From an uncultured Verrucomicrobia subdivision 3 bacterium (GTDB lineage: Bacteria > Verrucomicrobiota > Verrucomicrobiia > Limisphaerales > UBA11358), in NCBI GenBank assembly GCA_903878805.1, contig CAIRJF010000028.1, forward strand, positions 81,490-145,489: a DNA stretch of 64,000 nucleotides, written 5' to 3'. Under the pieces are notes generated by a model. It made no database searches. It saw only the letters and a program-made list of their open reading frames with translations, and was not told the DNA's origin. Positions 4,478-53,575 of the stretch are shown in pieces. The stretch's first letter is position 1, and each line of letters opens with the position of its first letter. A program made the position numbers and the translations under genes.

Positions 4478-4498
4478 TGTGTCTTTGCATTTATTGGT

Positions 4499-4528
4499 GC
4501 AGCACCCAGGTTCAACCTTGGGTGCTGC
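4499..4528 (+). promoter_or_regulatory. 12-bp stem-loop between the giant surface-protein gene and the pseudopilin-like gene
   Basis: GCAGCACCCAGG-TTCAAC-CTTGGGTGCTGC (one G-U pair). No following T-tract, so it is not a canonical intrinsic terminator. Confidence 0.3.
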
Positions 4529-4553
4529 CTCGGGCTGGTAGGAGTATTTGATT

Positions 4554-5378: not shown

Positions 5379-5449
5379 CGGCAGTTGGTTTGTTCGCGGA
5401 TAATAAAATAATTTACCGTTGCGGAATCTGCTATGAATCCGGGGTCACT

Positions 5450-8428: not shown

Positions 8429-8434
8429 AAAATT

Positions 8435-9478
8435 ATGAAAAGTGAACATTGGTTGAGAATTGGGAAACTCGTTTTGGTTGCCGGACTGTGGTTGACGCAA
8501 TCTGCTGTTGGGGCTGAACTACGCATTGGCATCATCGGCTGCGACACGTCGCATTGCGTGGCATTCACCGAGACGTTCAACAATCCGCAGGGCAAGTCGT
8601 ATGTGCCGGGCGGCAAAGTTGTCGCCGCTTACAAAGGCGGCAGCGCGGATTTGCCGCAGAGCATTTCGCGCGTCGAAAATATTGCTACGAATCTTCAATC
8701 GAAATACGGCGTGAAGATTTATGATACGATCGAGGAATTGTGCTCAAACGTGGACGTGATTTTGTTGGAAAGCGTGGATGGCCGGCCGCACCTCGCGCAA
8801 GTGAGGCCGGTGATCGCCGCGCGCAAGCCGGTGTTTGTGGACAAGCCGTGCACGGCGTCGTTGGAAGATGCGCTCGAAATGTTCCGACTGTCGAAGGCGG
8901 CGAACGTGCCGATTTTCAGTTCCTCAAGTCTGCGATTTGCGAAAGACACGCAGGCCGTGCATAGCGGCTCGATTGGCAAAGTTTTTTGCGCCGAGACTAC
9001 CAGCCCGCTCGAATTGGAACCGCACCATCCCGAACTCTTCTGGTATGGCGTGCATGGCGTGGAATCACTATTTACGGTGATGGGCACGGGCTGCGAAACC
9101 GTCCAACGTCGGATCGGCACAAACGGTTTGGTGGAAGTGGTTGGCACCTGGCATGGCGGGCGCACGGGAATTTATCGTGAGGAAAAACAAAAAAATTACA
9201 ACGCAAACTACCACGGCATCGCCAAGGGCGAGAAAGGCGAGGCGAAGATCGGTTCATTCGACGGCTACGCGCCCTTGGACGAGGCGATCATGAAATTTTT
9301 CCAAAATGGCGTCGCGCCGGTGCCGCCGGAGGAGACGATTGAAATCATGGCCTTCATGCAGGCCGCGCAGGAGAGCAAGGACAGAGACGGCGCGATAATT
9401 CGATTGGAAGATGTGATCACAAAAGTTCATCAACAGGTCAGGGCGGATTCCGGAAAAACACTAGCGCATGAGAATTGA
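8435..9478 (+). CDS. Secreted Gfo/Idh/MocA-family oxidoreductase
   Basis: Signal peptide followed by a Rossmann start LRIGIIGCDTSHC. VFVDKP motif. Confidence 0.7.
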   Translation: MKSEHWLRIGKLVLVAGLWLTQSAVGAELRIGIIGCDTSHCVAFTETFNNPQGKSYVPGGKVVAAYKGGSADLPQSISRVENIATNLQSKYGVKIYDTIEELCSNVDVILLESVDGRPHLAQVRPVIAARKPVFVDKPCTASLEDALEMFRLSKAANVPIFSSSSLRFAKDTQAVHSGSIGKVFCAETTSPLELEPHHPELFWYGVHGVESLFTVMGTGCETVQRRIGTNGLVEVVGTWHGGRTGIYREEKQKNYNANYHGIAKGEKGEAKIGSFDGYAPLDEAIMKFFQNGVAPVPPEETIEIMAFMQAAQESKDRDGAIIRLEDVITKVHQQVRADSGKTLAHEN

Positions 9479-10874
9479 CTGCCTCAAACCGATTTTTTTC
9501 CTCACGGTCTGCGCGCTGTTTTTGACGGCGTCCCCGGCGCGTGCGAAGGAGACGTGGAAAGCCGGCACCGCAAAAGCCGTCATCACGCCGACGGAAAAAA
9601 TGTGGCTCGCCGGATTTGCGAACCGCACCAATCCGGCGACCGGCAGTAAGCTGATGGATCTGTGGGTCAAGGCGATGGCGCTCGAAGATGCGTCAGGACA
9701 TCGCGCGGTCATACTCACGGCCGACCTGCTTGGCATTCCGCAAAGTGTTTATCAGCACGTCAGCGCCGCCATCGAAAAAAAATACGCGCTGCAACCGGAT
9801 CAAATTTTGCTCTGCGCGTCGCACACGCATTGCGGACCGGTGTTGCGCGATGCGCTCTACGACATTTATCCGCTCGACCAGACGCAGCGTGATTTGATTG
9901 AAAAATACACGACCCAGCTCGAATCACAGATGATTGATGTCGCGGGCGCGGCCATTGCCAATCTGGAACCGGTGCGAATCACTGCCGGTCAAGGCACGAC
10001 CGCGTTTGCGGTGAATCGTAGAAATAATCCAGAACCAAAAGTTTCCGACCTGATCGAGACTGGCGAACTTAAAGGGCCGGTGGATCATTCCGTGCCGGTG
10101 CTGGCGGTGTATTCGCCTGACGGAAAATTAAAGTCGGTTTTGTTCGGCTACGCGTGCCACAACACCACGTTGCAACTCAATGAATGGAGCGGTGATTACG
10201 CGGGCTTCGCGCAAAGCGCGCTCGAAAAAAATCATCCCGGCGCGCAGGCGATGTTTTTCATGGGCTGTGGCGGCGATCAAAATCCGTTGCCGCGTCATGA
10301 GATTTATTTGAGCCAGCGTTACGGCCACATGCTGGCGTCCGCAGTCGAAGAAGTTTTGCTCGCGCCACCGCACAATCTGCCGCCGGAACTCATCACCAAA
10401 ATGAAAACAATCACGCTGCCGTTCGGTGCGCCACTGATGATTGATGAATTGCAGACTCTGAAAAATGATTCACAGCCACCGACGCGCCGTTGGGCCGCAC
10501 GCTGGCTGGGTTTTTTGCAGTCGGGTAAAACGCCAGCGCACGATTATCCATTTCCCATTCAGGCTTGGCAGTTCGGCGGACAACAACTGCTGCTCACGCT
10601 GGGCGGCGAACCGGTGGTGGATTATGCGAATAAATTCAAGCAGTCATTCGGCGCACAGACATGGGTCGCTGGCTATTGCAACGACGTCATGACTTACATC
10701 CCGTCGCTGCGCGTGTTGCGCGAGGATGCAGTGACGAAACCCGGCGCGCGCTGGGGTTACGAGGGCAGCTATTGTTTTGTCGTCTATGGCTTGCCTGCCA
10801 AACGCTGGGGCGAAAACGTGGAAGACTTGATCACTGGCGGCGCAAAAGAACTCGTGGGGGAAATTCAAAAATGA
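9468..10874 (+). CDS. Neutral/alkaline non-lysosomal ceramidase-like amidohydrolase, exported copy
   Basis: Signal peptide (FFLTVCALFLTASPARA). AKAVITP...LAGF... and CASHTHCGP motifs. Paralog of 20300-21592. Confidence 0.7.
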   Translation: MRIDCLKPIFFLTVCALFLTASPARAKETWKAGTAKAVITPTEKMWLAGFANRTNPATGSKLMDLWVKAMALEDASGHRAVILTADLLGIPQSVYQHVSAAIEKKYALQPDQILLCASHTHCGPVLRDALYDIYPLDQTQRDLIEKYTTQLESQMIDVAGAAIANLEPVRITAGQGTTAFAVNRRNNPEPKVSDLIETGELKGPVDHSVPVLAVYSPDGKLKSVLFGYACHNTTLQLNEWSGDYAGFAQSALEKNHPGAQAMFFMGCGGDQNPLPRHEIYLSQRYGHMLASAVEEVLLAPPHNLPPELITKMKTITLPFGAPLMIDELQTLKNDSQPPTRRWAARWLGFLQSGKTPAHDYPFPIQAWQFGGQQLLLTLGGEPVVDYANKFKQSFGAQTWVAGYCNDVMTYIPSLRVLREDAVTKPGARWGYEGSYCFVVYGLPAKRWGENVEDLITGGAKELVGEIQK

Positions 10875-11791
10875 GAATACGCCGCGTGCCAAATTTGGTT
10901 TTGAATTTCGGCGTAATAGCCGCGTGCGCACTTTGTTATTGCGGTTGCGCGACACAGCACTCGAAAAATAAATCGGCGCAACGGAAGCGGATCGAACTAT
11001 TGTCCGGCACGTTCGGCACTTACGCCGCGGAACCGCGTTTAGCCGATCGACGCGTGGACACCGACCGTCTCGTCGCAGAACTCGTCAAGGTCAAGGCTAA
11101 CACCTACAACTTTCTGATTCACCACGCGTTGACCGACTGGGATGATTTGCAAATTTTTCTGCCATTAGCACGAGCGAATCACATCAAAGTTTGGGTGACG
11201 CTCGTGCCCCCGAGCGAACCGCCGTTCGCCGAACCTTTTCAGTTGGATTTTCATCGCTGGGCCATCGAGTTGGCAAAGCTGAGTTTGAAAGAACCTAATT
11301 TGGTTGCATGGAGCATTGATGATTTTTCCTATGACTCGAAAATTTTCACGAGCGAATACATCAAGGCGATGGTGGAAGTTTCGCACGCGATAAATTCCAA
11401 GCTAGCGTTCGTGCCGTGCCTTTACTTCAAGCAGATGAAGCCCGCGCTTGTGGAGAAATACCGGCCTTATGTTGACGGTATTTTGTTTCCTTATCGGCAC
11501 GAAATGGGGCAGAGGAATTTGACCGACTGGGACACGCTGGAAAAAGAAATCGCCGTCTTCCGTCAGGATTTCGGCCCGTCCGTGCCAGTGTTTGTGGATG
11601 TGTATGCCACGAAACATTCCCAGTTAAACGACTCGTCGCCCGAATATGTGCGGCAGGTAATGACGATTTCGCGGCGCTGTGCGGACGGTGTCTTAATCTT
11701 CTGCCATCAATACGAGGACAAAAGTCCTGAAAAATATCACGTCATCAAATCACTCTTTGAGCAATGGTCAGCGGAGAAAAAATCAAAGTGA
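10871..11791 (+). CDS. Uncharacterised lipoprotein-like protein (TIM-barrel glycosidase-like?), paralog of the N-terminal half of 26614-28248
   Basis: The ATG at 10871 overlaps the upstream stop (ATGA). Hydrophobic leader with Cys (ALCYCGCA). Shares blocks TY(N/A)FL(I/V)H...DWDD...PPSE...DDF...FPY with 26614-28248. Confidence 0.7.
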   Translation: MRIRRVPNLVLNFGVIAACALCYCGCATQHSKNKSAQRKRIELLSGTFGTYAAEPRLADRRVDTDRLVAELVKVKANTYNFLIHHALTDWDDLQIFLPLARANHIKVWVTLVPPSEPPFAEPFQLDFHRWAIELAKLSLKEPNLVAWSIDDFSYDSKIFTSEYIKAMVEVSHAINSKLAFVPCLYFKQMKPALVEKYRPYVDGILFPYRHEMGQRNLTDWDTLEKEIAVFRQDFGPSVPVFVDVYATKHSQLNDSSPEYVRQVMTISRRCADGVLIFCHQYEDKSPEKYHVIKSLFEQWSAEKKSK

Positions 11792-11792
11792 A

Positions 11793-13193
11793 ATGACCGC
11801 AACATTTTCACCCATGAAAAAAAATCTTAACCGAAGAAACTTTCTCAAATCCGCGACCCAAGCTGGCGCGGGCGCGGTGGCACTGCGTTACGCCGCCGTC
11901 GCAGGAATGTTCAGTGCTAACGTGCCGAATATTTTCGCCGCCGAAACCGACTTGCCCGTGAAGCTCGGCGGTAAGCCGGTTCGCACCACGCTTTTTCCGA
12001 CTTGGCCGGTTTACGATGAGACCGAGGAGAAGGCGTTACTCGACGTGTTACATAGCAAAAAATGGTTTCGCGGCGAGGGCCAGCACGTCAATCAGTTTGA
12101 GGACGCTTTCATGAAGCTTACCGGCGCGAAACATTGCGTCGCCACCGCCAACGGCACGAGCGCGGTGCTAGCCTCGCTCGGCGCGCTCGATGTTGGGCCG
12201 GGCGACGAGGTGATCCTGCCACCTTATACCTTTGTCGCGACCATTAACGCTGTGCTGATGCACCACGCATTGCCGGTGTTCGTGGACACCGACCCGGAGA
12301 CGTTTCAGATTGACGCCAAAAAAGTCGAAGCCGCCATCACCGACCGCACCGTGGCAATCATGCCCGTTCACGTCGGCGGTTCGCCCGCAGACCTCGACAC
12401 GATTTTGGAAATTGGCGCACGCCGTAAAATTCCGGTGGTCGAGGACGCGTGTCAGGCGCATCTCGCCGAGTGGCGCGGAAAGAAAGTCGGGACTTACGGC
12501 GTGACCGGTTGCTTCAGTTTTCAGGCGAGCAAAAACCTCACATCGGGCGAAGGTGGCGCGGTGATCACGAATGACGACGAACTGGCCGAGCGCCTTTACT
12601 CGTTCCACAACAACTGCCGCGCGCGCAAAACGGCGAGCTACAATTTCACCTATCGCGGCACGCGCGGCGCGAACTTGCGGCTCGCGGAATTTCAAGGTGC
12701 GTTGCTGCTCGCACAGATGGCGCGGCTGGAAACGCAGTCGCAGACGCGCGAAGCCAACGCGGCATATCTCGCGAAACAACTCGCGGGAATTCCCGGCCTC
12801 GTGCCCGCGAAAAATTACGACGGCTGCACGCGCAGTGCACATCACCTGTTCATGTTCCGTTACGACCCGGAAAAATTCTCCGGCCTGACGCGCGCGAGGT
12901 TTTTGGCCGCACTTACGGCGGAAGGCATTCCGTGTTCTGGCGGTTACTCTCCGTTGAACACGGAATCATTCATTCAAAACGCCTTCAAAACCCGGTCTTA
13001 TCAGCGGGTATATGCGGCGGACGTTTTGGTGGGCTGGGCCGACCGCACGCGCTGTCCCGCGAATGACCAGCTATGCGACGAGGCGGTGTGGTTCACGCAA
13101 AATATGTTGCTCGGTTCGCGCGCGGACATGGACGATATCGTGGCGGCGTTAAAGAAAATCCAAACGCACGCAGCTGAACTCGCGAAGGCTTGA
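11793..13193 (+). CDS. DegT/DnrJ/EryC1/StrS-family PLP aminotransferase with twin-arginine signal
   Basis: NRRNFLKSATQAGAGAVA is a near-consensus Tat motif. VILPPYTFVAT and FSFQASKNLTSGEGG (PLP lysine) are DegT hallmarks. The start may be 11793 or 11814. Confidence 0.8.
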   Translation: MTATFSPMKKNLNRRNFLKSATQAGAGAVALRYAAVAGMFSANVPNIFAAETDLPVKLGGKPVRTTLFPTWPVYDETEEKALLDVLHSKKWFRGEGQHVNQFEDAFMKLTGAKHCVATANGTSAVLASLGALDVGPGDEVILPPYTFVATINAVLMHHALPVFVDTDPETFQIDAKKVEAAITDRTVAIMPVHVGGSPADLDTILEIGARRKIPVVEDACQAHLAEWRGKKVGTYGVTGCFSFQASKNLTSGEGGAVITNDDELAERLYSFHNNCRARKTASYNFTYRGTRGANLRLAEFQGALLLAQMARLETQSQTREANAAYLAKQLAGIPGLVPAKNYDGCTRSAHHLFMFRYDPEKFSGLTRARFLAALTAEGIPCSGGYSPLNTESFIQNAFKTRSYQRVYAADVLVGWADRTRCPANDQLCDEAVWFTQNMLLGSRADMDDIVAALKKIQTHAAELAKA

Positions 13194-13206
13194 AGACCAT
13201 TGACTC

Positions 13207-14574
13207 ATGCGCTTCATCGTCACCGCCATTTTTGCCATGAGCTTCGGAGCATCCGCTGAGACGAACGCGCCTGTCCGTCTGATGACGTTTGAGCCGGCGC
13301 ACTTTCACGCGGCGCTCATCCAGAAGGAGATGCAGCCGGACGTTGCAGAGCGCGTAGATGTTTATGCCAAGGCTGGTGGCGCTCTGGACGCGCACCTCAA
13401 GCGGATTGAGCAGTTTAACACGCGCAAAGTAAATCCCACAGACTGGCAGGAAGTGGTCCACACGAATGATAATCCGCTCGCGCAAATGCTCACGGAAAAA
13501 CCTGGCAACGTCGTGATAGTGTCGGGAAAAAATCGCGGCAAGATTGATGCGCTAGAAAGAATGGTCGGTGCGAAGCTCAACGTGCTGGCGGATAAACCAT
13601 GGATCATTGAGGCGGAAGATTTTCCAAAACTCGCGACGACGCTCGACTCCGCAGATGAAAATGGCGTGATCGCTTATGACGGCATGACGCAGCGGTTTGA
13701 AGTGTCGTGCCAATTGCCGCGCGAACTGGTGAATGACGAAGCTGTGTTTGGTCAATTGGAGGTGGGCTCGGCGACGAAGCCCGCCGTGGAAATGGAGAGC
13801 GTTCACTATCTGCTGAAGGAAGTCGCAGGCGTGCCTTTGTTGCGACCTGCGTGGTATTTCGACATCACACAACAGGGCGAAGCGCTTGCGGACATTGGCA
13901 CGCATCTCGTGGACCTTGTGCAATGGACTTTATTTCCGGAGCAGGCGATTGATTTCAAAAAGGACATCCAACTGACGAGCGCGAGTCGCTGGCCGACGAA
14001 GATTTCGCTGGCACAATTTCAACGTGTCACCGGTGAGCCGAATTTCCCCTACTATTTGAAGCCATCTATCCCTAGCGGTTATTTGGAATATTTCGCCAAT
14101 GACACGCTGACGTATCAGCTGCGCGGCGTTTTTGTGAAGCTCACAGTGAAGTGGGGCTACGAAGCACCTGCTGGCAGCAAGGATTCGGAACTCGCCATTT
14201 TTCGCGGCTCGAAATCGCGCGTCGAGTTTCGTCAGGGCAAAGAGGAAAACTATCTACCGATGGTTTATGTCATCCCGACCGCGCCAGAGTTTAAGGCGGA
14301 AGTTGGTGCCGCGTTAAAAAATAAAATTGCTGCGCTCCAAAAGAATTATCCCGGCGTGTCGCTACAATCGCACGGCGATGAATTCCAACTCATGATTCCT
14401 GACGCGCTGCGCATCGGCCACGAAGCGCATTTCGCCTTGTTGACGCGCCGTTTTCTCGATTACGTGCATCATCCCAAGTCGCTGCCCGCCTGGGAAAAAC
14501 CGAACATGATCGCAAAATATTTCACCACCACCGAGGGCGTGAAACTCGCCCGTAAATCTTCAACCCAAAAATAA
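13207..14574 (+). CDS. Secreted putative oxidoreductase (Rossmann-like N-terminus + 'putative oxidoreductase C-terminal' type domain)
   Basis: Signal peptide. VRLMTFEPAHFHAALIQ and LADKPW blocks resemble Gfo/Idh/MocA-related proteins. The family assignment is from memory only. Confidence 0.5.
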   Translation: MRFIVTAIFAMSFGASAETNAPVRLMTFEPAHFHAALIQKEMQPDVAERVDVYAKAGGALDAHLKRIEQFNTRKVNPTDWQEVVHTNDNPLAQMLTEKPGNVVIVSGKNRGKIDALERMVGAKLNVLADKPWIIEAEDFPKLATTLDSADENGVIAYDGMTQRFEVSCQLPRELVNDEAVFGQLEVGSATKPAVEMESVHYLLKEVAGVPLLRPAWYFDITQQGEALADIGTHLVDLVQWTLFPEQAIDFKKDIQLTSASRWPTKISLAQFQRVTGEPNFPYYLKPSIPSGYLEYFANDTLTYQLRGVFVKLTVKWGYEAPAGSKDSELAIFRGSKSRVEFRQGKEENYLPMVYVIPTAPEFKAEVGAALKNKIAALQKNYPGVSLQSHGDEFQLMIPDALRIGHEAHFALLTRRFLDYVHHPKSLPAWEKPNMIAKYFTTTEGVKLARKSSTQK

Positions 14575-14577
14575 TTT

Positions 14578-15918
14578 ATGAAACGAACTGCCAAACTCAT
14601 CTGCACCCTCGCACTCACGGCTGCGTGTGCCGCGTTCGCCGCTGATCCGTTTCAGCCAGCGCACAAGCTCAGCGGCATCCCGCACGATTCCGGTTTTCCC
14701 GACGGTCACGATCCCTACAACAGCATGGGCTGCGCGAGCGACGGAAAAATTTATTACGTCCTAAGCGCGGATAAATATGACGTCGGCGCGCGGATGTTCT
14801 GTTACGACCCGGCTACGGACAAAGTGAAATTCATCTCCGACCTCACCGAGACGTGCGGCGAGAAGGACAAGAAATCCATCGTGCAGGGCAAGAGCCACGT
14901 CAATTTTGTTGAATCGGATGGTAAATTATTCTTCGCGTCGCATCTCGGATTCTACGGCAGCATAAACGGTAAAGAAGCGATGGGCACTCCGCCGGAGGGT
15001 TGGACCGCGTATCCCGGCGGCCATCTGCTCGCGTATGATCTGAAGAGTGGCAAATTTGAGGATTACGCTATTGCTCCGAATAAGGAAGGCATTCTGGCCT
15101 TCAATATAGACACAAAACGCGGACGCGGTTTCGGGCTGACGTGGCCGAGCGGAATTTTCTTCCGCTACGATTACGCAAAGCACGACCTGAAAAGTTTTGG
15201 TAAGATGTGCGCGCTCGGCGAAGACGGCGTGGGGGCGGACTATCGCACGATTTGTCGCTCCATTTGCGTGAACCCCGAAGATGGTTCGGCATATTTTACC
15301 ACCTCAGAAGGCGACATTTTTCGATACCGCGCTGATAGTGATACGGTGGAAAAAGTAAAGGGCGACAATCTCAAGAAAGATTATTTCGGCATCTACGATT
15401 ACACCTCGCCTGGTCACATGGGTTACAATTGGCGGCAGACATTTTATCGTCAAGCCGATGGCATGATCTACGGCGTGCACGGCAATTCCGGCTATCTCTT
15501 TCGCTTCAATCCCAAGACGGAACAGGTGCAGGTGCTCGACCGCATCACTTCGGATCCTTCCAAAGCAAGTGGTATGTTCGATCAATTCAGTTACGGCTAC
15601 CTCGGCTTCGGTCTCGCGCACGATGGCAAAACGATTTATTACCTGACCGGCGGCCCGATTTACGAAAACGGCAAGCGCCTCACAGGTAAATCCAAAACTG
15701 CGATGGGTGAAGCGAAGGGATTAGAAGATTTACATCTGGTCACCTACGACATTGAAGCCGGTGTGAGCAAAGATCGCGGCGCAATTTATTATCCGAATGG
15801 CCAGCGTCCGCTCTATGTGAATTCTCTCTGCATCGGCCTCGATGGCACGGCGTATTTCCTGGCACGTATTACCGAGAATGGCCAGACGCATTCCGATTTG
15901 ATCAGCGTCAAGCCGTGA
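14578..15918 (+). CDS. Uncharacterised secreted protein (possible beta-propeller)
   Basis: Signal peptide (LICTLALTAACAAFA). Recurrent DG(K/T)(I/L)Y(Y/F) strands. No recognisable catalytic motif. Confidence 0.6.
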   Translation: MKRTAKLICTLALTAACAAFAADPFQPAHKLSGIPHDSGFPDGHDPYNSMGCASDGKIYYVLSADKYDVGARMFCYDPATDKVKFISDLTETCGEKDKKSIVQGKSHVNFVESDGKLFFASHLGFYGSINGKEAMGTPPEGWTAYPGGHLLAYDLKSGKFEDYAIAPNKEGILAFNIDTKRGRGFGLTWPSGIFFRYDYAKHDLKSFGKMCALGEDGVGADYRTICRSICVNPEDGSAYFTTSEGDIFRYRADSDTVEKVKGDNLKKDYFGIYDYTSPGHMGYNWRQTFYRQADGMIYGVHGNSGYLFRFNPKTEQVQVLDRITSDPSKASGMFDQFSYGYLGFGLAHDGKTIYYLTGGPIYENGKRLTGKSKTAMGEAKGLEDLHLVTYDIEAGVSKDRGAIYYPNGQRPLYVNSLCIGLDGTAYFLARITENGQTHSDLISVKP

Positions 15919-15942
15919 GCCTGTGTTCGTAGCTGCAAAATC

Positions 15943-17730
15943 ATGAACTTCGTTGATTGGCTCGTCGTGGCGGCATCGTGCGGACTTGTCTTCACTGTCG
16001 GCCTGCTGTTTGCTCGGCGATCTTCGAAGAAAGGCGCGGCGGGTTACTTCGCTGGCGACCGCGACGTGCCTTGGTGGGCCATCGGACTCTCGAACACGGC
16101 GACTTACAGCTCTGGCACGGGCGCGTTCGTGATGCTCGTGCTCGTGTTCGGTCTGTCCGGCAACTGGCTGTGGTGGGCGAGCTGGATTGTGTGGATGCCG
16201 CTCGTTGCTATCGTTTGGGCGCGGCTGTGGCGGCGAATGCAAATCGTCACAACCGCGGAACTCATCTCGCTTCGTTACGGTGGAAAACCCGCTGTGGTTG
16301 CGCGGAAAATTTACGCGTTCGTTTGCTGCTTCGGGTTTGCGGTTCTCATCATCGCCTACATCACCGGATTTTTCGCAAAGACGATTGCGCCTCTCTGCCC
16401 GCTCACGACCTGGCAAGTCCTACTGATTTTTGGCGGCATCACAGTTTGTTACACGATGTTCGGGGGATTGCTGGGCGTCGTGTATGCGGATGTGGTGCAG
16501 TTTTGCATCATGATCACTGGCTGCACGGTGTTTCTCGTGCTGGCGATCTCGCACAATGGCGGTTGGCAAAACATATTATCGCACGTCCAACAGATTCGCC
16601 CGTCAGGTCTTGTGCAAACACCTCCGACACCCTCGATTGACGTGCTGACGTTGGTCGCGCTGTTTGTGCAGGGCTGGTTCTTCGCTGGTTCGCCAACTGC
16701 GGGCGAAGGCATGACCGCACAACGTTTCATGGCCGCGCGCGACGAACGTCATGCAGTTGGTGGACAATTATTCAATTCGTTTCTTGCGCTGTCGGTTCGG
16801 ACGTTGCCACTGATTGGCTTGGGAATAGTGGCCATGTCGATGTTCTGGACTTCTGATTTGGAGAAGAATCTCGGCTCGATGCCGGCTGGCTCGACCATGT
16901 TGAAAGACCCGGCGCACGCTTGGGGTGAACTCATCAAGGCGTCCAATCTCCCGCACGGTTTCATTGGCCTGCTCGTCGCGGCAGAAGTCGCAGCATTCAT
17001 GGGCTCGTTGAGTTCGCTCATCAACTGGGGCGGAAGTTTTGTGGTGAATGACTTGCTCCCAGCACGCTTCGCCAAAGAAGAAGGCAAAGTCTGGATTAGC
17101 CGGCTCACGACACTGGCCTTATTCCTCTTCGCCGCGACCGTCACGATTCTCTTTGTGGACAACATGGTGAGCTGGTTTCTCTTCATCAATTCGGCGATGG
17201 TCGTTTTCCTTTTGCCGCTGTCATGGTTCCGTTTTTTTTGGTGGCGCTTTAACGTCTGGGGCGAACTTGCCGCCGTCGTCCTCGGTCTGCCGCTCGCCAT
17301 CATCGTCTGGTTCACGCTAGATTTTCAAAGCAAACCAATGTGGCAGGGTCTTGGACTGTTGTTTGGTTTAAGCATAATGGTGCTCATCACGGTCACGCTG
17401 CTCACGCCGCCGGAATCGAAGGAAACTTTGAAAGTATTTTATGCACGTTGCCGTCCACCGGGATTTTGGAAACCAATCAGCGACGAAGTGCCTTTGCCTG
17501 ATATCGGCGAACCGACCACCGCTGAGATGTTTTGGGACTCGCTACTCGGCATCATCGCGTCGCTCGGTTTGGTGCTGGCGACGAACGCCATTTTTGTTGG
17601 CGATTGGCCGCGATTTTTTATGAGCATTACCGGTTGTGTTGTGACCGGGGCCTGGCTGCTGCGGCGAATTCTGCTGAAGTCCCGCGCGGCCAAGTTGATT
17701 GAAACCATCGAACCCGAGGCCGCGCGATGA
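15943..17730 (+). CDS. Sodium:solute symporter (SSF) family transporter
   Basis: 595 aa with >=13 hydrophobic segments. AGYFAGDRDVPWWAIGLS at the N-terminus is typical of the SSS family. Confidence 0.8.
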   Translation: MNFVDWLVVAASCGLVFTVGLLFARRSSKKGAAGYFAGDRDVPWWAIGLSNTATYSSGTGAFVMLVLVFGLSGNWLWWASWIVWMPLVAIVWARLWRRMQIVTTAELISLRYGGKPAVVARKIYAFVCCFGFAVLIIAYITGFFAKTIAPLCPLTTWQVLLIFGGITVCYTMFGGLLGVVYADVVQFCIMITGCTVFLVLAISHNGGWQNILSHVQQIRPSGLVQTPPTPSIDVLTLVALFVQGWFFAGSPTAGEGMTAQRFMAARDERHAVGGQLFNSFLALSVRTLPLIGLGIVAMSMFWTSDLEKNLGSMPAGSTMLKDPAHAWGELIKASNLPHGFIGLLVAAEVAAFMGSLSSLINWGGSFVVNDLLPARFAKEEGKVWISRLTTLALFLFAATVTILFVDNMVSWFLFINSAMVVFLLPLSWFRFFWWRFNVWGELAAVVLGLPLAIIVWFTLDFQSKPMWQGLGLLFGLSIMVLITVTLLTPPESKETLKVFYARCRPPGFWKPISDEVPLPDIGEPTTAEMFWDSLLGIIASLGLVLATNAIFVGDWPRFFMSITGCVVTGAWLLRRILLKSRAAKLIETIEPEAAR

Positions 17731-19061
17731 AACGCTTAGCCATCCTGCTACCGCTAATCGCTACCGCTGCGTTGCGCGTGTCGGCACTCGAACCGACTGC
17801 CGACATTCACACGAATTTTTCATTCACACTTCCCTCGGCCAAACGCGAGTTTCCCGAGCCACTGCCTGCTGGCGCGCAGCCCGGATTCAAAATTCGCGGC
17901 ACGAAAGGCTGGGCGTGGACGCCGGAGCAATATCTCGCCGAGATTCCGTTCATCGCGAAATACAAAATGAATTTCCTGATGAACTGCTATCTTTCGATGT
18001 TTGACATCGAGCATTACGCGAAGTGGAACGATCCCGACGCAAATCGCTGGTGGGAAGATTTACCGCCCGCGAAAAAGGCCGCTTACGAAAAAGTCGTGCA
18101 CTCCGCGCAGGCACACGGTTTGCAATTTTGTTTCAGCATGAATCCCAATTTGTTCAGCAAGCGCACGGTGAACGAGGAATCCTCGGAAAGCATTGATCTG
18201 CTATTCAAGCATTACGCGTGGATGCAAAGTCTAGGCGTGAAGTGGTTCAACCTTGCGCTCGACGACGCGACGAATGGCATTAACGCTGCCACGCAAGCCA
18301 AGGTCTGTAACGAGATTTTTCATCGCCTGCGCGCCAAAGACCCGGAGGCGCAGATGATTTTTTGCCCGACGTATTATTGGGGTGACGGCACGCGGCCCCA
18401 TCAGCAAGCATATCTCGAAGAACTCGCGCGTGGACTCGACAAAGCCATTTACGTTTTTTGGACCGGCGATGAGGTCGTCGGTAAAGTCACACGCGCGGCG
18501 GCGGAAAAATTTCACAGCTTCGTGCAGCACCGGATTTTTCTGTGGGACAATTATCCGGTGAACGATGGGCATCCCACGGCGCACCTCGGCCCGGTGACGG
18601 ATCGCGACGCGGACGTATGCGAAGTCGTTGACGGCTACGTGAGCAATCCGCTACGAGAGCAGAATGAAATCAACCGCATCCCGCTGGCGACGTGCGCGGA
18701 CTACGCCTACAACCCGCGTGCCTACGATGCGCAGCGCTCCATCGGTCAGGCAATTTTGTTGCAAGCCGATAAACCGTCGCAACGTGAAGTGTTGCGCGAT
18801 CTCGTCGAGGTTTATCCGGGAATGTTGCTGACGCCCGGCGGCGGCAAAAAGAAAACCGCCTACAACCCCGTGCGCGCGCAGATGGACAGCATCCTCGCGC
18901 TGACGCAACCACGTTTCGCGGCGCAGGCGTATCTCGATTCACTGGAAAATCTGGCCGCGCGTTTGCAAAAGGAATTTCCGCATCGCTATGACGCCGAAAA
19001 AAAGACGCTTGCCGCTGACATTGCGGAAGTGAAAAAGAAGTTCAACGCGAAATATCCTTAA
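17727..19061 (+). CDS. GH84-family beta-N-acetylglucosaminidase (O-GlcNAcase-like), secreted
   Basis: Signal peptide. KYKMNFLMNCY, the FNLALDDA catalytic Asp-Asp pair and WDNYPVND are all GH84 hallmarks. ATGA overlap with the upstream gene. Confidence 0.75.
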   Translation: MKRLAILLPLIATAALRVSALEPTADIHTNFSFTLPSAKREFPEPLPAGAQPGFKIRGTKGWAWTPEQYLAEIPFIAKYKMNFLMNCYLSMFDIEHYAKWNDPDANRWWEDLPPAKKAAYEKVVHSAQAHGLQFCFSMNPNLFSKRTVNEESSESIDLLFKHYAWMQSLGVKWFNLALDDATNGINAATQAKVCNEIFHRLRAKDPEAQMIFCPTYYWGDGTRPHQQAYLEELARGLDKAIYVFWTGDEVVGKVTRAAAEKFHSFVQHRIFLWDNYPVNDGHPTAHLGPVTDRDADVCEVVDGYVSNPLREQNEINRIPLATCADYAYNPRAYDAQRSIGQAILLQADKPSQREVLRDLVEVYPGMLLTPGGGKKKTAYNPVRAQMDSILALTQPRFAAQAYLDSLENLAARLQKEFPHRYDAEKKTLAADIAEVKKKFNAKYP

Positions 19062-19067
19062 GATTTT

Positions 19068-20303
19068 ATGACTGAAACTTTGGCTATCTTTGGCGGAAGT
19101 AAAACGCGCACCAAGCCATTTACGAGCTGGCCGGTTTTTGACGAGACCGATGAACAGCGGTTGCTTGGCGCGTTGCGTTCCGGCAAATGGGGCAAGCTCA
19201 ACGGCGAAGAAGTGTCGGAGTTCGAGCGCCGCTTTGCGGCGATGCATGATTGTAAACACGCCATCGGCGTGGTGAACGGCACGGTTTCGCTCCGCATTGC
19301 CTTGATGGCAGCGGGAATCAAAGCCGAGGAGGAAGTGATTGTTCCGCCTTACACATTTCTCGCAACGGCGACGGCGGTGGTCGAGGCAAATGCCGTCCCA
19401 GTGTTTGCCGACGTCAATCTGGAGACGTTCAACCTTGATCCCCAATCTGTCGAGGCAGCGATCACGCCGAAGACACGTGCGATCATTCCGGTTCACATGG
19501 CTGGCCAACCAGCGGATATGGATGCCATCCTGGCGATTGCAAAAAAACACAACCTTCTGGTCATTGAAGACGCGGCGCACGCACACGGTGCGTCCTACAA
19601 AAATCGCGGACTCGGTTCCATCGGACACATGGGCTCGTTCTCGTTTCAATCGTCAAAAAATCTCACGAGCGGCGAGGGCGGTATTATCACGACAAACGAC
19701 GACCAGCTTGCCGAGGCTTGTCGCTCCATCCATAACTGCGGCCGCATCACGGGTGGTTTGTGGTATGAGCATCACGTCATATCAGCGAACTATCGGCTTG
19801 GTGAATTTCAGGGTGCGATCCTGAACACGCAATTGAATCGTCTCGAAGCACAAACCGCGACCCGCGATCGCAATGGGCAATATCTGGCTGAGAAACTGAG
19901 CAAGATTCCCGGCATTTACCCGCAACGCCGAACCGCTGAAACCACGCGCCACGCGTATCATCTGTTTTTGTTCCGGATTGTGGCGGAAGAATTTGGTTCA
20001 TCGCGCGCGGTCATTCTTCAGGCGCTTGCGGCGGAAGGCGTTCCCGTTTCCGGCGGCTACGCTATTCCGTTATATCGCCAGCCGTTGTTCCTCAATAATG
20101 CCTTTGGACCATATCTACCGGATGCCAAGACCAGACTCGACTACGGCAAAGTCAGCTGCCCGAATTGTGAGAAAATTTGCGGCGAACAGGGCGCGTGGCT
20201 GGAGCAAAGTATTTTTCTCGGAGGTTTGTCCGACATGGATGACATCGCCTGCGCCTTTGAAAAAATCCACCAAAACCGCCACCTACTTGTCGAATTGAAA
20301 TGA
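19068..20303 (+). CDS. DegT/DnrJ/EryC1/StrS-family PLP aminotransferase, cytoplasmic copy
   Basis: No signal peptide. VIVPPYTFLAT and FSFQSSKNLTSGEGG motifs. Clear paralog of 11793-13193. Confidence 0.85.
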   Translation: MTETLAIFGGSKTRTKPFTSWPVFDETDEQRLLGALRSGKWGKLNGEEVSEFERRFAAMHDCKHAIGVVNGTVSLRIALMAAGIKAEEEVIVPPYTFLATATAVVEANAVPVFADVNLETFNLDPQSVEAAITPKTRAIIPVHMAGQPADMDAILAIAKKHNLLVIEDAAHAHGASYKNRGLGSIGHMGSFSFQSSKNLTSGEGGIITTNDDQLAEACRSIHNCGRITGGLWYEHHVISANYRLGEFQGAILNTQLNRLEAQTATRDRNGQYLAEKLSKIPGIYPQRRTAETTRHAYHLFLFRIVAEEFGSSRAVILQALAAEGVPVSGGYAIPLYRQPLFLNNAFGPYLPDAKTRLDYGKVSCPNCEKICGEQGAWLEQSIFLGGLSDMDDIACAFEKIHQNRHLLVELK

Positions 20304-21592
20304 TGAAACTCGGCACAGCCCAGATTGACATCACGCCCCAACCGGGCGTGGAGCTTTCTGGTTTTGCTGCCCGGGTTCAGCCTTCGACCGGCGTGCTAGA
20401 TAAGCTTTTTGCGAAGGTGCTTTTCATCGAAACCGAGCAAACCAAACTGCTGTGGATTCATTGCGATTTGATTGGATTCGATCGTGCGATCGTTTTGGAA
20501 TTCCGTCGCTGGGCGCATGAAAAACTCGGACTCGGCACGCATCAGGTGATGCTCTCCGCAACGCACACGCACTCGGGTCCGGCGACGATTCACCTGCGCG
20601 AGTGCGGCGAATACGACTCGGTCTACGTTGAGTTTTTGCAGAAAAGTTTTCGCCGGGCGGCGGAAATAGCGGTGGCACAAGGTGAAGTTGTCGACCTGAC
20701 GTGTGTGGAAGGTCAGCTTCCACTCGCCGTGGATCGCCGCCAAACGGTAACACCGCATACGGATCCGCGCGTTGCCGCGATTGGATTTCGTCGCAGCAAC
20801 GGCAGCTTTGTTGCGGTGCTGGTGAATTACGCCCTGCATCCGGTCGCGCTCGGGTCCAAGAACCGATACATCAGCGCGGACATTTTCGGCGAAGCGGCTA
20901 AACAACTTTCGCGCGAATTGCTCGGCCGTCCGCTGGTTTTGCTGACCAACGGTGCGTGTGGCAATTTAAATCCACCGGCAGAAAATGTTTCGTTTGAGCA
21001 GGTGAAGTTGTGGGGCCGGCAAATTGCCGAGGCGGTGCAACCGCTGTTGCTAGCTGGGAAAATAAATTTTCAGCCCACGCTCCAACTGCTGAACCGAAAC
21101 CTTAAATTGCCTTTGGAAACATTGGATGCGAATGGGATCAATCATTTCGCGGATGAAGCTCTACGCAACGCCGCAGCGCTCGCGGAATGGGGCGACAGAT
21201 ACCGACGTGTCGTCGGGCATTGGCGCACGACACTGTTAGAACAAATCGGAAAAAACGACGCGAGTCAGCACGAAGCCGAGTTGTTCGGCGTGCTTTTGGA
21301 TGAAGTGATTTTCGTCGGCGCGAATGCCGAGATGTTCTCGGAATTCACCGATTGGCTGCGCGAAAAATCCCGACGACAGATTTATCTCGTCGGCTATGCC
21401 AACGGCGATGTGGGCTACCTACCGACGCGCGCAGCTTATGCCGAGGGCGGCTACGAAGTGGATGTGGCGCATCTTTTTTACGGCGGCTTCCGTCTGCGCG
21501 CGGGCGGACTCGAACAACTTGCCGCCGCTGCGCAGGACTTGGTGCGCGAACTGGAGGCGAAATTTTCGAACGATATGGTGCAGAACAAATGA
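20300..21592 (+). CDS. Neutral ceramidase-like amidohydrolase, cytoplasmic copy
   Basis: MMKLGTAQIDITP...LSGF...SATHTHSGP. No signal peptide. Paralog of 9468-10874. ATGA overlaps on both sides. Confidence 0.7.
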   Translation: MMKLGTAQIDITPQPGVELSGFAARVQPSTGVLDKLFAKVLFIETEQTKLLWIHCDLIGFDRAIVLEFRRWAHEKLGLGTHQVMLSATHTHSGPATIHLRECGEYDSVYVEFLQKSFRRAAEIAVAQGEVVDLTCVEGQLPLAVDRRQTVTPHTDPRVAAIGFRRSNGSFVAVLVNYALHPVALGSKNRYISADIFGEAAKQLSRELLGRPLVLLTNGACGNLNPPAENVSFEQVKLWGRQIAEAVQPLLLAGKINFQPTLQLLNRNLKLPLETLDANGINHFADEALRNAAALAEWGDRYRRVVGHWRTTLLEQIGKNDASQHEAELFGVLLDEVIFVGANAEMFSEFTDWLREKSRRQIYLVGYANGDVGYLPTRAAYAEGGYEVDVAHLFYGGFRLRAGGLEQLAAAAQDLVRELEAKFSNDMVQNK

Positions 21593-23838
21593 ATTTCAAT
21601 AACTCTTCGCCGAAGCAAAATATTTTGCCGCTACTGCAGTCAACTAGCGACGGTTGGACGAGGCGTTCATTCGTGCAAACGCTCGGCGGCGCGGCGCTGA
21701 GTGCGGGTTTACTTTCCAATTTTCCGGTCGCGGTGTCTGCGATTGAAAATTCCGCTGCAAAAAGCTCCTCAGAAAAAAATGACCGTCCGCATTATCGCGC
21801 CATCGGCTGGTGGCTGACGTTTGACGATCTCACCTGGCCGAATCCAGAGTTGATGGACAAGATTCGCCGTCGCGCGGATCAGTGCGCCGCAAGCGGCGTG
21901 AATTGTTGCATCGTTTTCGGCGCGCACTTGCGCTGGGATTTCATGCCGTTGTGGGAGCGATTTCATGATGAGTTGCGGTTTGTCGCGGATGAATTGCATC
22001 AGCGCAAAATATTTTTGTTCGATCATCACTCTGCCACCATCGTGCATCGTCCGCGCAATCGCGACGAAGCGCTCGACATCTGGCGGCGCAACCGTCATCA
22101 CGTTCCCTTTTATCCATCGCGCGACATCGCGGCGACGTGGGAATTTGCCGGCTCGCATCTCAATGACTGGCGGATGCTCGACGTGGAAACCGGCGCACCG
22201 GTTTTTGTGCCGGCCTACACCGCCGAGCAATTTTGCATGAACCACCCCGGTTTCCGTAAAGGCTATGCCGCCTACGTCAAAAAACTGCTCGCGGACACGG
22301 GCATGGACGGGTTGATGAGCGATGACATGATTTTTTACGCGGACTGGCGAGCGTGCGGTTGCAAGTTTTGTCGCGACCGATTCAAGTGCGAATACGGCCA
22401 CGACCTGCCGCCGGTGAGTGACACTAGTTTCTGGGGCAACCGTCGCAGCCAGGCGTTTCGCGACTGGATCAAAATGCGTTTTCAAACGCCGGCAGATTTT
22501 CTCGCGGAAGTAAAAAACGCGCTGCCGAGAAATTTCCCACTGCTGACCTGCTGCTCCAGCAGCGACAATTTTTATCTGCCGAGCTTCGGCATGAGCTATC
22601 AGGATTTCATCCAAAGCTGCAATCACGTCATGCTCGAAATGGTCGGCCAGACGCCGGCCATCGAAGGCACTTGGGACGAGCGCGTGCCGAGCCAGTTGCT
22701 GCATCTGGACATCGCGGGCAAACACAACGCGCCGTGCTTTGGTCTCGGCTACGGATTTTTTCCCGACACGGCATTTTTCATCTGGGCAGTGAACAAATTT
22801 CTCGGTTCCGATTGCTGGTTCAGCACCGTGAAAGGCCGGCTGGACGCATCGCCAACAGAACTCGCCGCGCTTGCGGATGATTCTGAACTGGTCGGTGAAG
22901 GTTTCAATTGGGAGAAGACTAACTCGGAATTATTTCGTGGTGAGGCTGAAACCGATACCGCCATTTTTTTCTCTCGGGCCACGCGCGATTTTTACAGCGA
23001 AGTCATAGGTGATTATTGCGGCGACTACAATGCCAGCTGCTTAAATTTATCCCGTGAGAATCTTCCGTGCGAAGTGGTCACCGAAATTCCATCATTAGGA
23101 AAAACGCGTTGTCTGATCCTGAGCAGTGTCATGTGTCTCTCAATCGTCCAGCGGAAGCAACTGGCAGATTTTCTATACGTCGGCGGCATGGTCATTGCCA
23201 CCGGTCCAAACGGTTATTACGACGAGCAGGGCAATCCCGCAGCGAAACCGTGGCTGGAGGAATTTGGCGCGACGGTTGAATTGATCGAGCCGGATCGCCC
23301 TGGAAATTTTCCGCCGTATAAAAATTTCAAAACGCCGGTCGAGTTGACGAAGTGCCGCGTGCCGGAATCGTTTCAGAAAACATTTCAGAACGGCTGGTTT
23401 GATTTGCCCGTGAGCAAAGGACGTTTGCTGTGGCGACCGGAACGAATCTCCAACAAAAATACGCGCGCGGCCGTCGCGGCGCTGTTGCAGTCGCGCTATC
23501 AAAGCGGTGTCAAGATCAGCGGACTGCCCGATGGCTGGATGCTGCGGCAATACCGCGACGGCAATCGTCTGTTGATCCATGCGCTACCGGGCAAAGTCGT
23601 CACCTCGTTGCATCCGACTTTGAAGAATCAAATGACCAAGCAGCGCATTGTTGAGAAATTAGTTTTCACGCCGCTGGTTGGGACGGTGGCTCTGAACTCG
23701 CAGCTAAAATTCAAGAGCGTGAGATTGCACAGTCCTGATTTGATTCAGCCCCATGTTGGGAGCACGCGTTCTGCCAATGAGTGGATCGTCGAAACGGCCA
23801 ATGTCAGCCGGTATTTTATCGTCGAGTGCGAAGCTTGA
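21589..23838 (+). CDS. Tat-signal GH42-like (beta-galactosidase family-like) TIM-barrel protein
   Basis: The ATG at 21589 overlaps the upstream stop. TRRSFVQTLGGAALSAG is a Tat motif. ACGCKFCRDRFKCEYG resembles the GH42 CxCxxC zinc motif. LILSSVMCLSIVQRKQLADFLYVGGMVIATG resembles the GH42 trimerisation-domain block. Confidence 0.5.
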   Translation: MNFNNSSPKQNILPLLQSTSDGWTRRSFVQTLGGAALSAGLLSNFPVAVSAIENSAAKSSSEKNDRPHYRAIGWWLTFDDLTWPNPELMDKIRRRADQCAASGVNCCIVFGAHLRWDFMPLWERFHDELRFVADELHQRKIFLFDHHSATIVHRPRNRDEALDIWRRNRHHVPFYPSRDIAATWEFAGSHLNDWRMLDVETGAPVFVPAYTAEQFCMNHPGFRKGYAAYVKKLLADTGMDGLMSDDMIFYADWRACGCKFCRDRFKCEYGHDLPPVSDTSFWGNRRSQAFRDWIKMRFQTPADFLAEVKNALPRNFPLLTCCSSSDNFYLPSFGMSYQDFIQSCNHVMLEMVGQTPAIEGTWDERVPSQLLHLDIAGKHNAPCFGLGYGFFPDTAFFIWAVNKFLGSDCWFSTVKGRLDASPTELAALADDSELVGEGFNWEKTNSELFRGEAETDTAIFFSRATRDFYSEVIGDYCGDYNASCLNLSRENLPCEVVTEIPSLGKTRCLILSSVMCLSIVQRKQLADFLYVGGMVIATGPNGYYDEQGNPAAKPWLEEFGATVELIEPDRPGNFPPYKNFKTPVELTKCRVPESFQKTFQNGWFDLPVSKGRLLWRPERISNKNTRAAVAALLQSRYQSGVKISGLPDGWMLRQYRDGNRLLIHALPGKVVTSLHPTLKNQMTKQRIVEKLVFTPLVGTVALNSQLKFKSVRLHSPDLIQPHVGSTRSANEWIVETANVSRYFIVECEA

Positions 23839-23874
23839 CTGCGTTTCTACCTTGGATGTTTTAAACGAAATAAA

Positions 23875-26594: not shown

Positions 26595-26613
26595 GCGGAA
26601 GTGAGTTGTTTTG

Positions 26614-30149: not shown

Positions 30150-30229
30150 GCAGGCAGTATCAGATTGCAGTATCAAAAAGTCAAATTGCGAAATGCAAAC
30201 ACGGTGTAAGTTGTTGATAATAAGCGGTT

Positions 30230-30319
<90 letters not shown>

Positions 30320-30343
30320 TGGTTTGTTTTATCTGCGAAAAAT

Positions 30344-53556: not shown

Positions 53557-53575
53557 TTATTTTTCGCCGTGCAAT

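Follow-up and report, generated by a model that had tools for sequence, protein, structure and literature searches.

Enzymes of the DegT/DnrJ/EryC1 (DegT) family are textbook cytoplasmic biosynthetic enzymes, and the known bacterial routes of amino-sugar use are intracellular, either after phosphorylation (NagA/NagB) or by the Ong enzymes for oxidised chitin. Here we describe a gene cluster in a 64,000-nucleotide stretch of DNA (the window; contig CAIRJF010000028.1, positions 81,490 to 145,489) from an uncultured freshwater Verrucomicrobia subdivision 3 bacterium. It contains two paralogous pairs of genes for a ceramidase-like amidohydrolase and a DegT-family aminotransferase, one pair predicted to be exported and one without leaders. 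The exported aminotransferase carries a predicted twin-arginine translocation (Tat) signal and is referred to as Tat-DegT. The pairs may be two versions of one N-deacylation/transamination module, one working outside and the other inside the cytoplasm, followed by ketone reduction and acting on N-acyl amino sugars or cyclitols, a tentative reading to which we give slightly less than an even chance.

A precedent for a periplasmic aminotransferase is PtaA of Pseudomonas pyoverdine tailoring, which we take to belong to an aminotransferase family different from DegT, the likeness to Tat-DegT being limited to localisation and cofactor. PtaA is a Tat-exported pyridoxal 5′-phosphate (PLP)-dependent transaminase working in the periplasm, and PtaA and PvdN, as proposed here for Tat-DegT, leave the cytoplasm through Tat already folded around their cofactor (PMC6206403). 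The example of PtaA, a genuine transaminase of the periplasm, shows that an aminotransferase can work there. Both PtaA and Tat-DegT would face regeneration of PLP from pyridoxamine 5′-phosphate (PMP) outside the cytoplasm, but PtaA acts on the glutamate side chain of a siderophore, in biosynthetic tailoring, and without amidase or oxidoreductase partners.

Oxidoreductases of the Gfo/Idh/MocA family are paired with DegT enzymes in several biosynthetic systems (RifL/RifK, NtdC/NtdA, GnnA/GnnB, and inositol dehydrogenase with BtrR/StsC-type inosose aminotransferases). These pairs contain the same two families as the window and perform the same chemistry between alcohol, ketone and amine, and the nearest solved DegT relative is of the RifK type. 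However, they are cytoplasmic and run towards the amine, whereas the window contains an exported set, an N-deacylase, glycoside hydrolases and importers; the proposed route would run opposite to the dehydrogenase/aminotransferase order by which amino sugars and aminocyclitols are made. In the Ong pathway, OngB is reportedly related to amino-acid deacetylases and OngC is said to be a deaminase releasing ammonia; presumably neither belongs to PF04734 or PF01041. According to the abstracts, this GlcNAc1A pathway of Pseudoalteromonas (OngB/OngC) performs a catabolic deacetylation and then removes the amino group (PMC9537276, PMC12017989). As far as described there, it resembles the proposed route in using a non-phosphorylated N-acetyl amino-sugar derivative and a dedicated cluster with transporters, but both steps are cytoplasmic and the abstract mentions no ceramidase-fold or DegT protein.

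Neutral/alkaline ceramidases (2zws and human 4wgk) share with the window proteins the catalytic-domain fold and the H-x-H and second His motifs, but the identity is only 13–19%, the ceramidases are about 180–260 residues longer, and one window copy is predicted to be cytoplasmic. Periplasmic keto-sugar systems (Tat-exported Gfo/Idh/MocA glycoside 3-dehydrogenases with 3-keto-disaccharide hydrolase/ThuA, and the glucose–fructose oxidoreductase (GFOR) of Zymomonas) are similar to the window in that cofactor-loaded oxidoreductases are exported and unphosphorylated sugars are used. To our knowledge, no aminotransferase or amidase has been described in these systems, and none was found in the literature searched. 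This literature contained no description of an exported DegT or of the present gene set either; an earlier note on this DNA had likewise been aware of no such pathway. PtaA/PvdN and the Ong pathway were the only analogues found.

The two DegT proteins of the window were 45% identical over 411 columns (E = 2e-115, 333 bits) and matched PF01041 with 334.3 and 349.5 bits (cut-off 19.8) over profile positions 4–331 and 4–323 of 360. The blocks PPYTF(V/L)AT and FSFQ(A/S)SKNLTSGEGG were common to both. The two ceramidase-like proteins were 26% identical over 458 columns (E = 2e-24), the cytoplasmic copy being aligned from residue 3, and contained the motifs CASHTHCGP (exported, 9468) and SATHTHSGP (leaderless, 20300). 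The claim of the earlier note that two paralogous pairs lie in one operon was thus confirmed at 9468/11793 and 19068/20300, together with the motifs and blocks that it had quoted, and the neighbouring genes were likewise confirmed by Pfam: an exported Gfo/Idh/MocA protein (8435), a PF16490 oxidoreductase (13207) and glycoside hydrolases of families 84 (GH84; 17727) and 20 (GH20; 24948). As a correction, the exported pair is not adjacent: the gene at 10871–11791 sits between the two.

The exported ceramidase-like protein (CER_exp) begins MRIDCLKPIFFLTVCALFLTASPARA/KE (the slash marks the putative cleavage site), a leader of the general secretory (Sec) type. Tat-DegT begins MKKNLNRRNFLK...IFA/AE, with the NRRNFLK motif preceding the start of homology to the leaderless paralogue. 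This fits the layout of a Tat signal, in which a (S/T)-R-R-x-F-L-K motif is followed by an h-region of weak hydrophobicity and by cleavage at an A-x-A type site before the mature domain. No hydrophobic N-terminus was detected in the leaderless DegT and ceramidase-like copies, whose alignment to the exported copies begins at residues 3–8 and falls on the mature parts of these; exported and leaderless proteins were also told apart by a simple test of hydrophobicity. The assignment of leaders in the earlier note therefore stood, including the translation of the RR motif, since both possible starts (11793 and 11814) are upstream of it and the motif is conserved. The identical database protein (P0001) and close homologues begin at the MKK of 11814. 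RRxF(L/I/V) was present within the first 45 residues in 116 of the 120 top homologues (60–100% identity; named records from Verrucomicrobia, Limisphaerales, Opitutaceae, Pirellulales, Chloroflexi and Sumerlaeota), and the other four were mis-started or truncated, which argues that the motif is not due to chance. More distant exported relatives (40–47% identity) with SRREFI-type motifs were also found.

A neighbour-joining tree of 163 DegTs placed all proteins with a real N-terminal extension of 29–57 residues in one contiguous clade, whereas the leaderless DegT of the window fell into a separate sister group of leaderless proteins of 400–425 aa. The two window copies thus represent two old sister clades and not a recent duplication. 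In an alignment of 25 sequences including both window copies, S239-K240 (FSFQxSKN; Schiff-base Lys, SxK) and E210-D211-A212 (PLP-binding Asp, the partner of the pyridine nitrogen) were invariant. Near-invariant Cys residues were found in the Tat clade (alignment A2) within HC(V/I)ATANG, EDACQ, GCFSFQ, NNCR and GCTR. The Cys pair of CPxxxxLC was invariant in the Tat-DegT alignment and also kept in the leaderless copy, and might make up a disulfide bond or bind a metal.

Comparison with characterised nucleoside diphosphate (NDP)-sugar aminotransferases was based on NCBIfam and PDB scores, with membership of the curated equivalogs (PseC, LegC, ArnB, WecE, DesI, RfbH) defined by the NCBIfam trusted cut-off. 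Both DegTs fell outside these, in line with the interpretation of the earlier note: the highest match was PseC (216.7 and 227.5 bits against a cut-off of 423.5), followed by ArnB (about 212 against 631), and the remaining models scored lower still. The nearest solved relatives of both were 3-amino-5-hydroxybenzoate (AHBA) synthase and 2-deoxy-scyllo-inosose/scyllo-inositol aminotransferases, enzymes whose substrates are not nucleotide-linked. GDP-perosamine synthase is close behind AHBA synthase (191 versus 226 bits by phmmer), so the placement is no more than suggestive. The copies were closer to each other (333 bits) than to any solved enzyme (at most 256 bits). A DegT–ceramidase fusion was sought among 777–878-aa relatives of the leaderless DegT, but these (P0363, P0375, P0449 and P0491) were tandem DegT–DegT fusions, each domain being 30–39% identical to the window copies.

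For the ceramidase-like proteins, PF04734 (Ceramidase_alk) was matched with 49.9 (exported) and 61.1 bits (leaderless) against a cut-off of 32.1, over positions 3–233 and, for the best stretch, 2–103 of 509; no other Pfam family was reported in them. The neutral-ceramidase equivalog NF041649 (cut-off 1200) was matched by the cytoplasmic copy with 17.9 bits and by the exported copy not at all. At 430–468 aa compared to 646–688 aa for 2zws and 4wgk, the proteins appear from their sequences to lack the ceramidase region beyond the catalytic domain. A family profile aligned with residues 5–230 of the Pseudomonas aeruginosa enzyme 2zws, including HTHxGP and the second His motif: SHTHCGP was placed on THTHSGP and YACHNT on FPVHST, and the Glu and Tyr ligands were not alignable. 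The H-x-H and the second His are presumably the Zn ligands. Foldseek searches of the PDB with an AlphaFold2 (AF2) model of CER_exp (mean predicted local distance difference test (pLDDT) score 72.5) gave significant matches only to neutral ceramidases (2zws, 2zxc and 4wgk; E = 3e-20 to 5e-16, TMq 0.56–0.62). The window proteins are best described as ceramidase-fold Zn amidohydrolases. Ceramidase-like partners in five other loci (L101, L113, L115, L125 and L146) carry twin-arginine-type leaders of their own, for example MDEKINRRRFLVTTAGAG and MHRRDFLAGLAA, instead of Sec leaders.

Gene linkage was analysed in two sets of loci. The first was centred on the amidase and comprised 80 genome loci around CER_exp homologues, from at least 587 confirmed stretches, labelled Verrucomicrobiota, Planctomycetota, Bacteroidota, Acidobacteriota and Hydrogenedentes. 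A DegT was present within 10 kb in only nine of these loci, in each case with an RR motif. A compact triad of Tat-DegT, ceramidase-like and 14578-like genes (the beta-propeller described below) was found in two Bacteroidota, Pedobacter (L030) and the isolate Arundinibacter roseus (L044); in the latter a gene for a 945-aa DUF7133, cupredoxin and HEAT-repeat protein (L044:5646–8483) directly precedes the triad. The second set, centred on the aminotransferase, comprised 80 metagenome loci around Tat-DegT, 35 of which carried a partner (ceramidase-like in 22, 14578-like in 16, PF16490 in nine). Of the 36 loci from other lineages that were 10 kb or longer, 20 had a partner (ceramidase-like 11, propeller 10, PF16490 seven), and one of these three genes was the immediate neighbour of Tat-DegT in 28 of the 67 assessable loci. 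Ceramidase-like proteins adjoining Tat-DegT nearly all had Sec leaders or, in some cases, even Tat leaders.

The co-occurrence of ceramidase-like and DegT genes put forward in the earlier note was thereby supported in part: it recurs in unrelated lineages, in exported as well as leaderless form, but 71 of the 80 ceramidase-like loci lack a nearby DegT. A point absent from that note is that Tat-DegT is linked to the propeller and PF16490 genes about as frequently as to the amidase. Ceramidase-like and propeller genes occurred together in two of the 36 long loci and propeller and PF16490 genes in five, which suggests that the window unites what are elsewhere two separate sub-modules. The combination of Tat-DegT with a leaderless DegT and a leaderless ceramidase-like protein was repeated in two loci, the leaderless pair being adjacent in L127 and neighbouring on opposite strands in L155. 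Single loci showed DegT with a propeller at 79% identity (L081), DegT with Ceramidase_alk (L084), and DegT with Gfo/Idh/MocA and Glucosamine_iso genes near (L083). Records with these genes were labelled Verrucomicrobiota, Planctomycetota, Bacteroidota, Acidobacteriota and Chloroflexota. Among the 139 genes flanking Tat-DegT, even the most frequent Pfam family was seen no more than four times. A PF04909 (Amidohydro_2) gene was found immediately upstream and on the same strand in three Tat-DegT loci (L138:9077–9955, L147:8991–9863 and L154:2351–3235), and its product is a possible hydrolase partner in place of the amidase. A TonB-dependent receptor gene (OMP_b-brl_4) adjoins Tat-DegT in four further loci.

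Of the two further partners of Tat-DegT, the protein encoded at 13207–14574 matched PDB entry 4oo3, deposited as a hypothetical protein (E = 3e-120), and its N-terminal half gave no PF01408 match; in other loci, too, a PF16490 gene follows Tat-DegT immediately. The protein encoded at 14578–15918 has about 3,700 homologues without a Pfam domain, the named ones all being called hypothetical, and conservation across lineages was 63–93% (P0241–P0360). Its AF2 model was a confident beta-propeller (pLDDT 82.5, predicted TM score 0.85), for which Foldseek against the PDB returned nothing more specific than generic matches to Kelch, WD40, GH74 and sensor domains (TM 0.4–0.5); Kelch_6, DUF6923 and SSL_N were matched below the Pfam threshold. 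The many invariant His, Asp and Glu residues suggest that the propeller is an enzyme. A relationship to the SGL lactonase of the window was not supported by hhalign (probability 1%).

The protein families and folds, the catalytic residues that can be aligned, the presence and conservation of the leaders and the recurrent gene linkage are established parts of this system. In the pathway that we propose, a neutral-ceramidase-fold Zn amidohydrolase would deacylate the nitrogen of an amino sugar, amino-sugar acid or aminocyclitol (the acyl group most likely being acetyl), a DegT-family PLP aminotransferase would turn the freed amine on a secondary carbon into a ketone, and NAD(P)-dependent oxidoreductases (candidates being the Gfo/Idh/MocA proteins 8435 and 23875 and the PF16490 protein 13207) would reduce the ketone to an ordinary sugar. 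Tat-DegT would fold and load PLP in the cytoplasm, cross the membrane by Tat, and work in the periplasm on material released by exported GH84, GH20 and other exported proteins. The leaderless pair would perform the same chemistry on the cargo of the major facilitator superfamily (MFS) and sodium:solute symporter (SSF) transporters. The partner types fit a linear chemistry, because an amidase precedes the amine and an oxidoreductase follows the ketone. Nucleotide sugars are cytoplasmic and unavailable in the periplasm and are therefore ruled out as substrates of the exported copy. The GH84, GH20 and NagA/B-like genes and the two importers suggest N-acetylated amino sugars, or derivatives of these, from glycans. 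Substrate class, direction, order of steps, periplasmic amino acceptor and PMP recycling are what we infer. Overall, the interpretation given in the earlier note is supported in part. A broader claim is that a large, monophyletic Tat-exported DegT clade forms the core of an undescribed extracytoplasmic pathway, together with exported ceramidase-fold N-deacylases, PF16490 oxidoreductases and the propeller family, that converts N-acyl amino sugars, the corresponding acids or analogous cyclitols to neutral keto or hydroxy sugars before uptake; we consider this a real possibility but rather doubtful.

The cluster consists of 18 plus-strand genes (about 4.5–28.2 kb; Table 1) that overlap by 4–11 nt or are separated by gaps of at most about 70 nt, with gaps below 40 nt throughout from 6198 onward; the end of the 8435–9478 gene, for example, overlaps the 9468 gene by 11 nt. 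A promoter and terminator scan of 4300–24000 gave counts equal to those of shuffled sequence and none within the short intergenic gaps, and the operon was therefore called from gene spacing alone. The NagA-like protein matched TIGR00221 over positions 55–355, so that the first approximately 50 model positions are missing. The top NCBIfam relatives of the 23875–24927 protein were IolG and UDP-GlcNAc 3-dehydrogenase (GlcNAc, N-acetylglucosamine), both below cut-off. A third paralogous pair is formed by 10871–11791 and 26611–28248 (33% identity over 190 aa, E = 3e-31), both predicted to be exported and having a conserved DDF motif in common. Neither these paralogues nor the 749-aa Tat-like protein matched Pfam, NCBIfam or PDB sequences; weak relatives of the latter (20–23% identity) were found in five of the 80 Tat-DegT loci.

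Table 1. Genes of the cluster and the gene upstream of it, in window positions
Position	Strand	Predicted product	Evidence and remarks
209–4477		1,422-aa protein with PATR (passenger-associated transport repeat) motifs	Upstream of operon
4548–5378	+	Prepilin/DUF1559 protein	First operon gene
5450–6208	+	NagB-like, glucosamine-6-phosphate deaminase family	PF01182, 57 bits; NCBIfam nagB models 135–145 bits, below cut-off
6198–7172	+	NagA-like, relative of N-acetylglucosamine-6-phosphate deacetylase	TIGR00221, 212.8 bits (cut-off 225.65)
7169–8428	+	MFS transporter	PF07690; top NCBIfam match D-galactonate transporter subfamily TIGR00893, 233.6 bits (below cut-off 395)
8435–9478	+	Exported Gfo/Idh/MocA oxidoreductase, Sec-type leader	PF01408, 35.9 bits (cut-off 24); hydrophobic N-terminus
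9468–10874	+	CER_exp, exported ceramidase-fold Zn amidohydrolase	PF04734, 49.9 bits; Sec leader
10871–11791	+	Exported lipoprotein-like protein	No Pfam or NCBIfam match; paralogue of 26611–28248
11814–13193 (alternative start 11793)	+	Tat-signal DegT/DnrJ/EryC1-family PLP aminotransferase	PF01041, 334 bits; RRNFLK
13207–14574	+	Exported oxidoreductase, PF16490 C-terminal domain	PF16490, 345.6 bits
14578–15918	+	Exported beta-propeller	No Pfam match at default threshold
15943–17730	+	Sodium:solute symporter (SSF)	PF00474, 120.8 bits
17727–19061	+	Exported GH84 beta-N-acetylglucosaminidase	PF07555, 183 bits; Sec leader
19068–20303	+	Leaderless (cytoplasmic) DegT-family aminotransferase	PF01041, 349.5 bits
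20300–21592	+	Leaderless (cytoplasmic) ceramidase-fold amidohydrolase	PF04734, 61.1 bits; start overlaps DegT stop by 4 nt
21589–23838	+	749-aa protein, Tat-like TRRSFVQ leader	No Pfam, NCBIfam or PDB match
23875–24927	+	Leaderless Gfo/Idh/MocA oxidoreductase	PF01408, 75.3 bits; PF22725, PF02894
24948–26594	+	Exported GH20 beta-N-acetylhexosaminidase	PF00728, 350 bits; PF02838
26611–28248	+	Exported protein	No Pfam or PDB match; paralogue of 10871–11791

The large operon was confined to the Verrucomicrobia subdivision 3 lineage (L001–L003 and L086), and the closest genome record (L001), a metagenome-assembled genome of this lineage from a boreal lake, showed full synteny and 88–95% protein identity. 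The cluster is bounded by an opposite-strand gene for a tyrosine recombinase of the phage integrase family (28695–30320), followed by an HNH endonuclease gene (30527–31327, plus strand); these could be the boundary of a mobile element. Elsewhere in the window, at 52159–56698 on the minus strand, genes for two Gfo/Idh/MocA proteins with a C2 domain adjoin one for a fusion of ThuA and 3-keto-disaccharide hydrolase, which from its domains looks like a separate periplasmic 3-keto-sugar module. Near it are genes for an SGL gluconolactonase (42056–43138), a short-chain dehydrogenase/reductase (44185–44958) and a PfkB kinase (45038–46132).

Several other explanations were weighed against the proposed N-deacylation/transamination module. 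In a route through oxidised amino-sugar acids, an exported dehydrogenase would oxidise C1 of GlcNAc or N-acetylgalactosamine, the ceramidase-like enzyme would de-N-acetylate the N-acetyl-hexosaminate, DegT would make a 2-keto-aldonate and the anion-type MFS transporter would import it. A 2-amino-aldonate is chemically an alpha-amino acid. The exported Gfo/Idh/MocA and PF16490 oxidoreductases of the operon and the sub-cut-off D-galactonate transporter match would suit such a route; GFOR, the founding Gfo/Idh/MocA member, oxidises aldoses at C1 in the periplasm, and the DUF7133 and cupredoxin protein ahead of the Arundinibacter triad may, from its domain, be a dehydrogenase. The route would parallel the GlcNAc1A pathway, with other enzymes and partly in the periplasm, and deacetylation followed by deamination is, according to the abstract, established for that pathway (PMC9537276). 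It is nevertheless unlikely, as KDG (2-keto-3-deoxygluconate) and 2-ketogluconate enzymes are absent from the operon, the NagA-like and NagB-like genes indicate the ordinary phosphorylated route, and the propeller is unrelated to the SGL lactonase. Moreover, we know of no DegT enzyme that acts on aldonic acids. If instead the exported DegT-like enzyme performed a PLP-dependent elimination or dehydration (as AHBA synthase or ColD/E1-like enzymes), for example deaminating or cleaving amino-glycosides, no amino acceptor would be required and the periplasmic co-substrate problem would disappear. The top PDB relative, AHBA synthase, is a bifunctional dehydratase/aminotransferase, and weak Pfam similarity to Beta_elim_lyase was seen as well. 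We regard this as quite unlikely, because the catalytic Lys, replaced by His in ColD/E1 dehydrases, is retained, the recurrent oxidoreductase partner suits a ketone product, and the AHBA synthase match is well below that between the two window copies.

The amidases and DegTs could also act on different substrates and merely share a large glycan-utilisation operon, as the many ceramidase-like loci without a DegT, the gene separating the exported pair and the heterogeneous wider neighbourhoods would allow. Direct adjacency on many unrelated contigs (including L030, L044, L084, L091, L094, L096, L098, L101, L115, L116 and L146), the 4-nt overlap of the leaderless pair and its recurrence in L127 and L155 make such independence hardly likely; the 11 of 36 long Tat-DegT loci with a ceramidase-like gene look far above chance for a few-copy family, although no background rate was computed. 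A very unlikely alternative is anabolic, with exported DegT aminating keto groups made by exported dehydrogenases on envelope or extracellular glycans and the amidase trimming N-acyl groups. In its favour, the rest of the DegT family works in biosynthesis, conservation between phyla is very high (DegT 60–65%, propeller 60–79%), suggesting a housekeeping-like function, and glycosyltransferase genes adjoin some loci, such as L081 and L111. However, the window operon contains no acyltransferase or glycosyltransferase, its context is one of GH84, GH20, NagA/NagB-like genes and importers, and an amidase partner speaks for removal of N-acyl groups rather than their installation. Most improbable is a lipid route with true ceramidases or aminolipid amidases, in which DegT would deaminate the sphingoid base and GH20 and GH84 would remove glycosphingolipid head groups. 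Neutral ceramidases are the only significant structural relatives, and the 2-acylamino-1,3-diol structure is common to ceramide and GlcNAc, but the near absence of NF041649 similarity, the shorter length, coverage of 230 of the 509 PF04734 positions and the low identity to real ceramidases all disagree with it. The characterised or solved DegT relatives found act on sugars, cyclitols or shikimate-type intermediates, and a cytoplasmic copy would make little sense for a membrane lipid.

Against the proposed module itself the following points have to be held. A stoichiometric 2-oxo-acid acceptor would be required in the periplasm and none was evident. Export of Tat-DegT is predicted from its sequence alone, and each step of the pathway is a proposal drawn from sequence and structure. 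The margin of AHBA synthase over GDP-perosamine synthase is small, and the leaderless DegT could still use nucleotide sugars. The predominance of ceramidase-like loci without a DegT counts in the same direction, as does the observation that wider Tat-DegT neighbourhoods were heterogeneous and not consistently glycan-related. With the ceramidase-like and propeller genes so rarely found together, Tat-DegT may serve more than one pathway.

The protein families of this system are known; what appears to be new is the large exported DegT clade, its association with amidase, PF16490 and propeller proteins, and the occurrence of the module in duplicate, on either side of the membrane. Anatomy and conservation stand on firm ground, and the biochemistry is a proposal. 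Thousands of members of an exported DegT clade with conserved partners would imply transamination of sugars in the periplasm, and with it a periplasmic 2-oxo-acid/amino-acid couple or another system for PMP recycling. If this reading of the clade is true, thousands of genes automatically annotated as "perosamine synthetase", "dTDP-4-amino-4,6-dideoxygalactose transaminase", "neutral ceramidase" or "hypothetical protein" are probably mis-assigned, and the propeller family of about 3,700 members without domain annotation would gain a first functional handle. In soils and waters, amino sugars make up a major pool of organic nitrogen, and the proposed pathway, if true, would be a new route by which their carbon and nitrogen are turned over in soil and fresh water.

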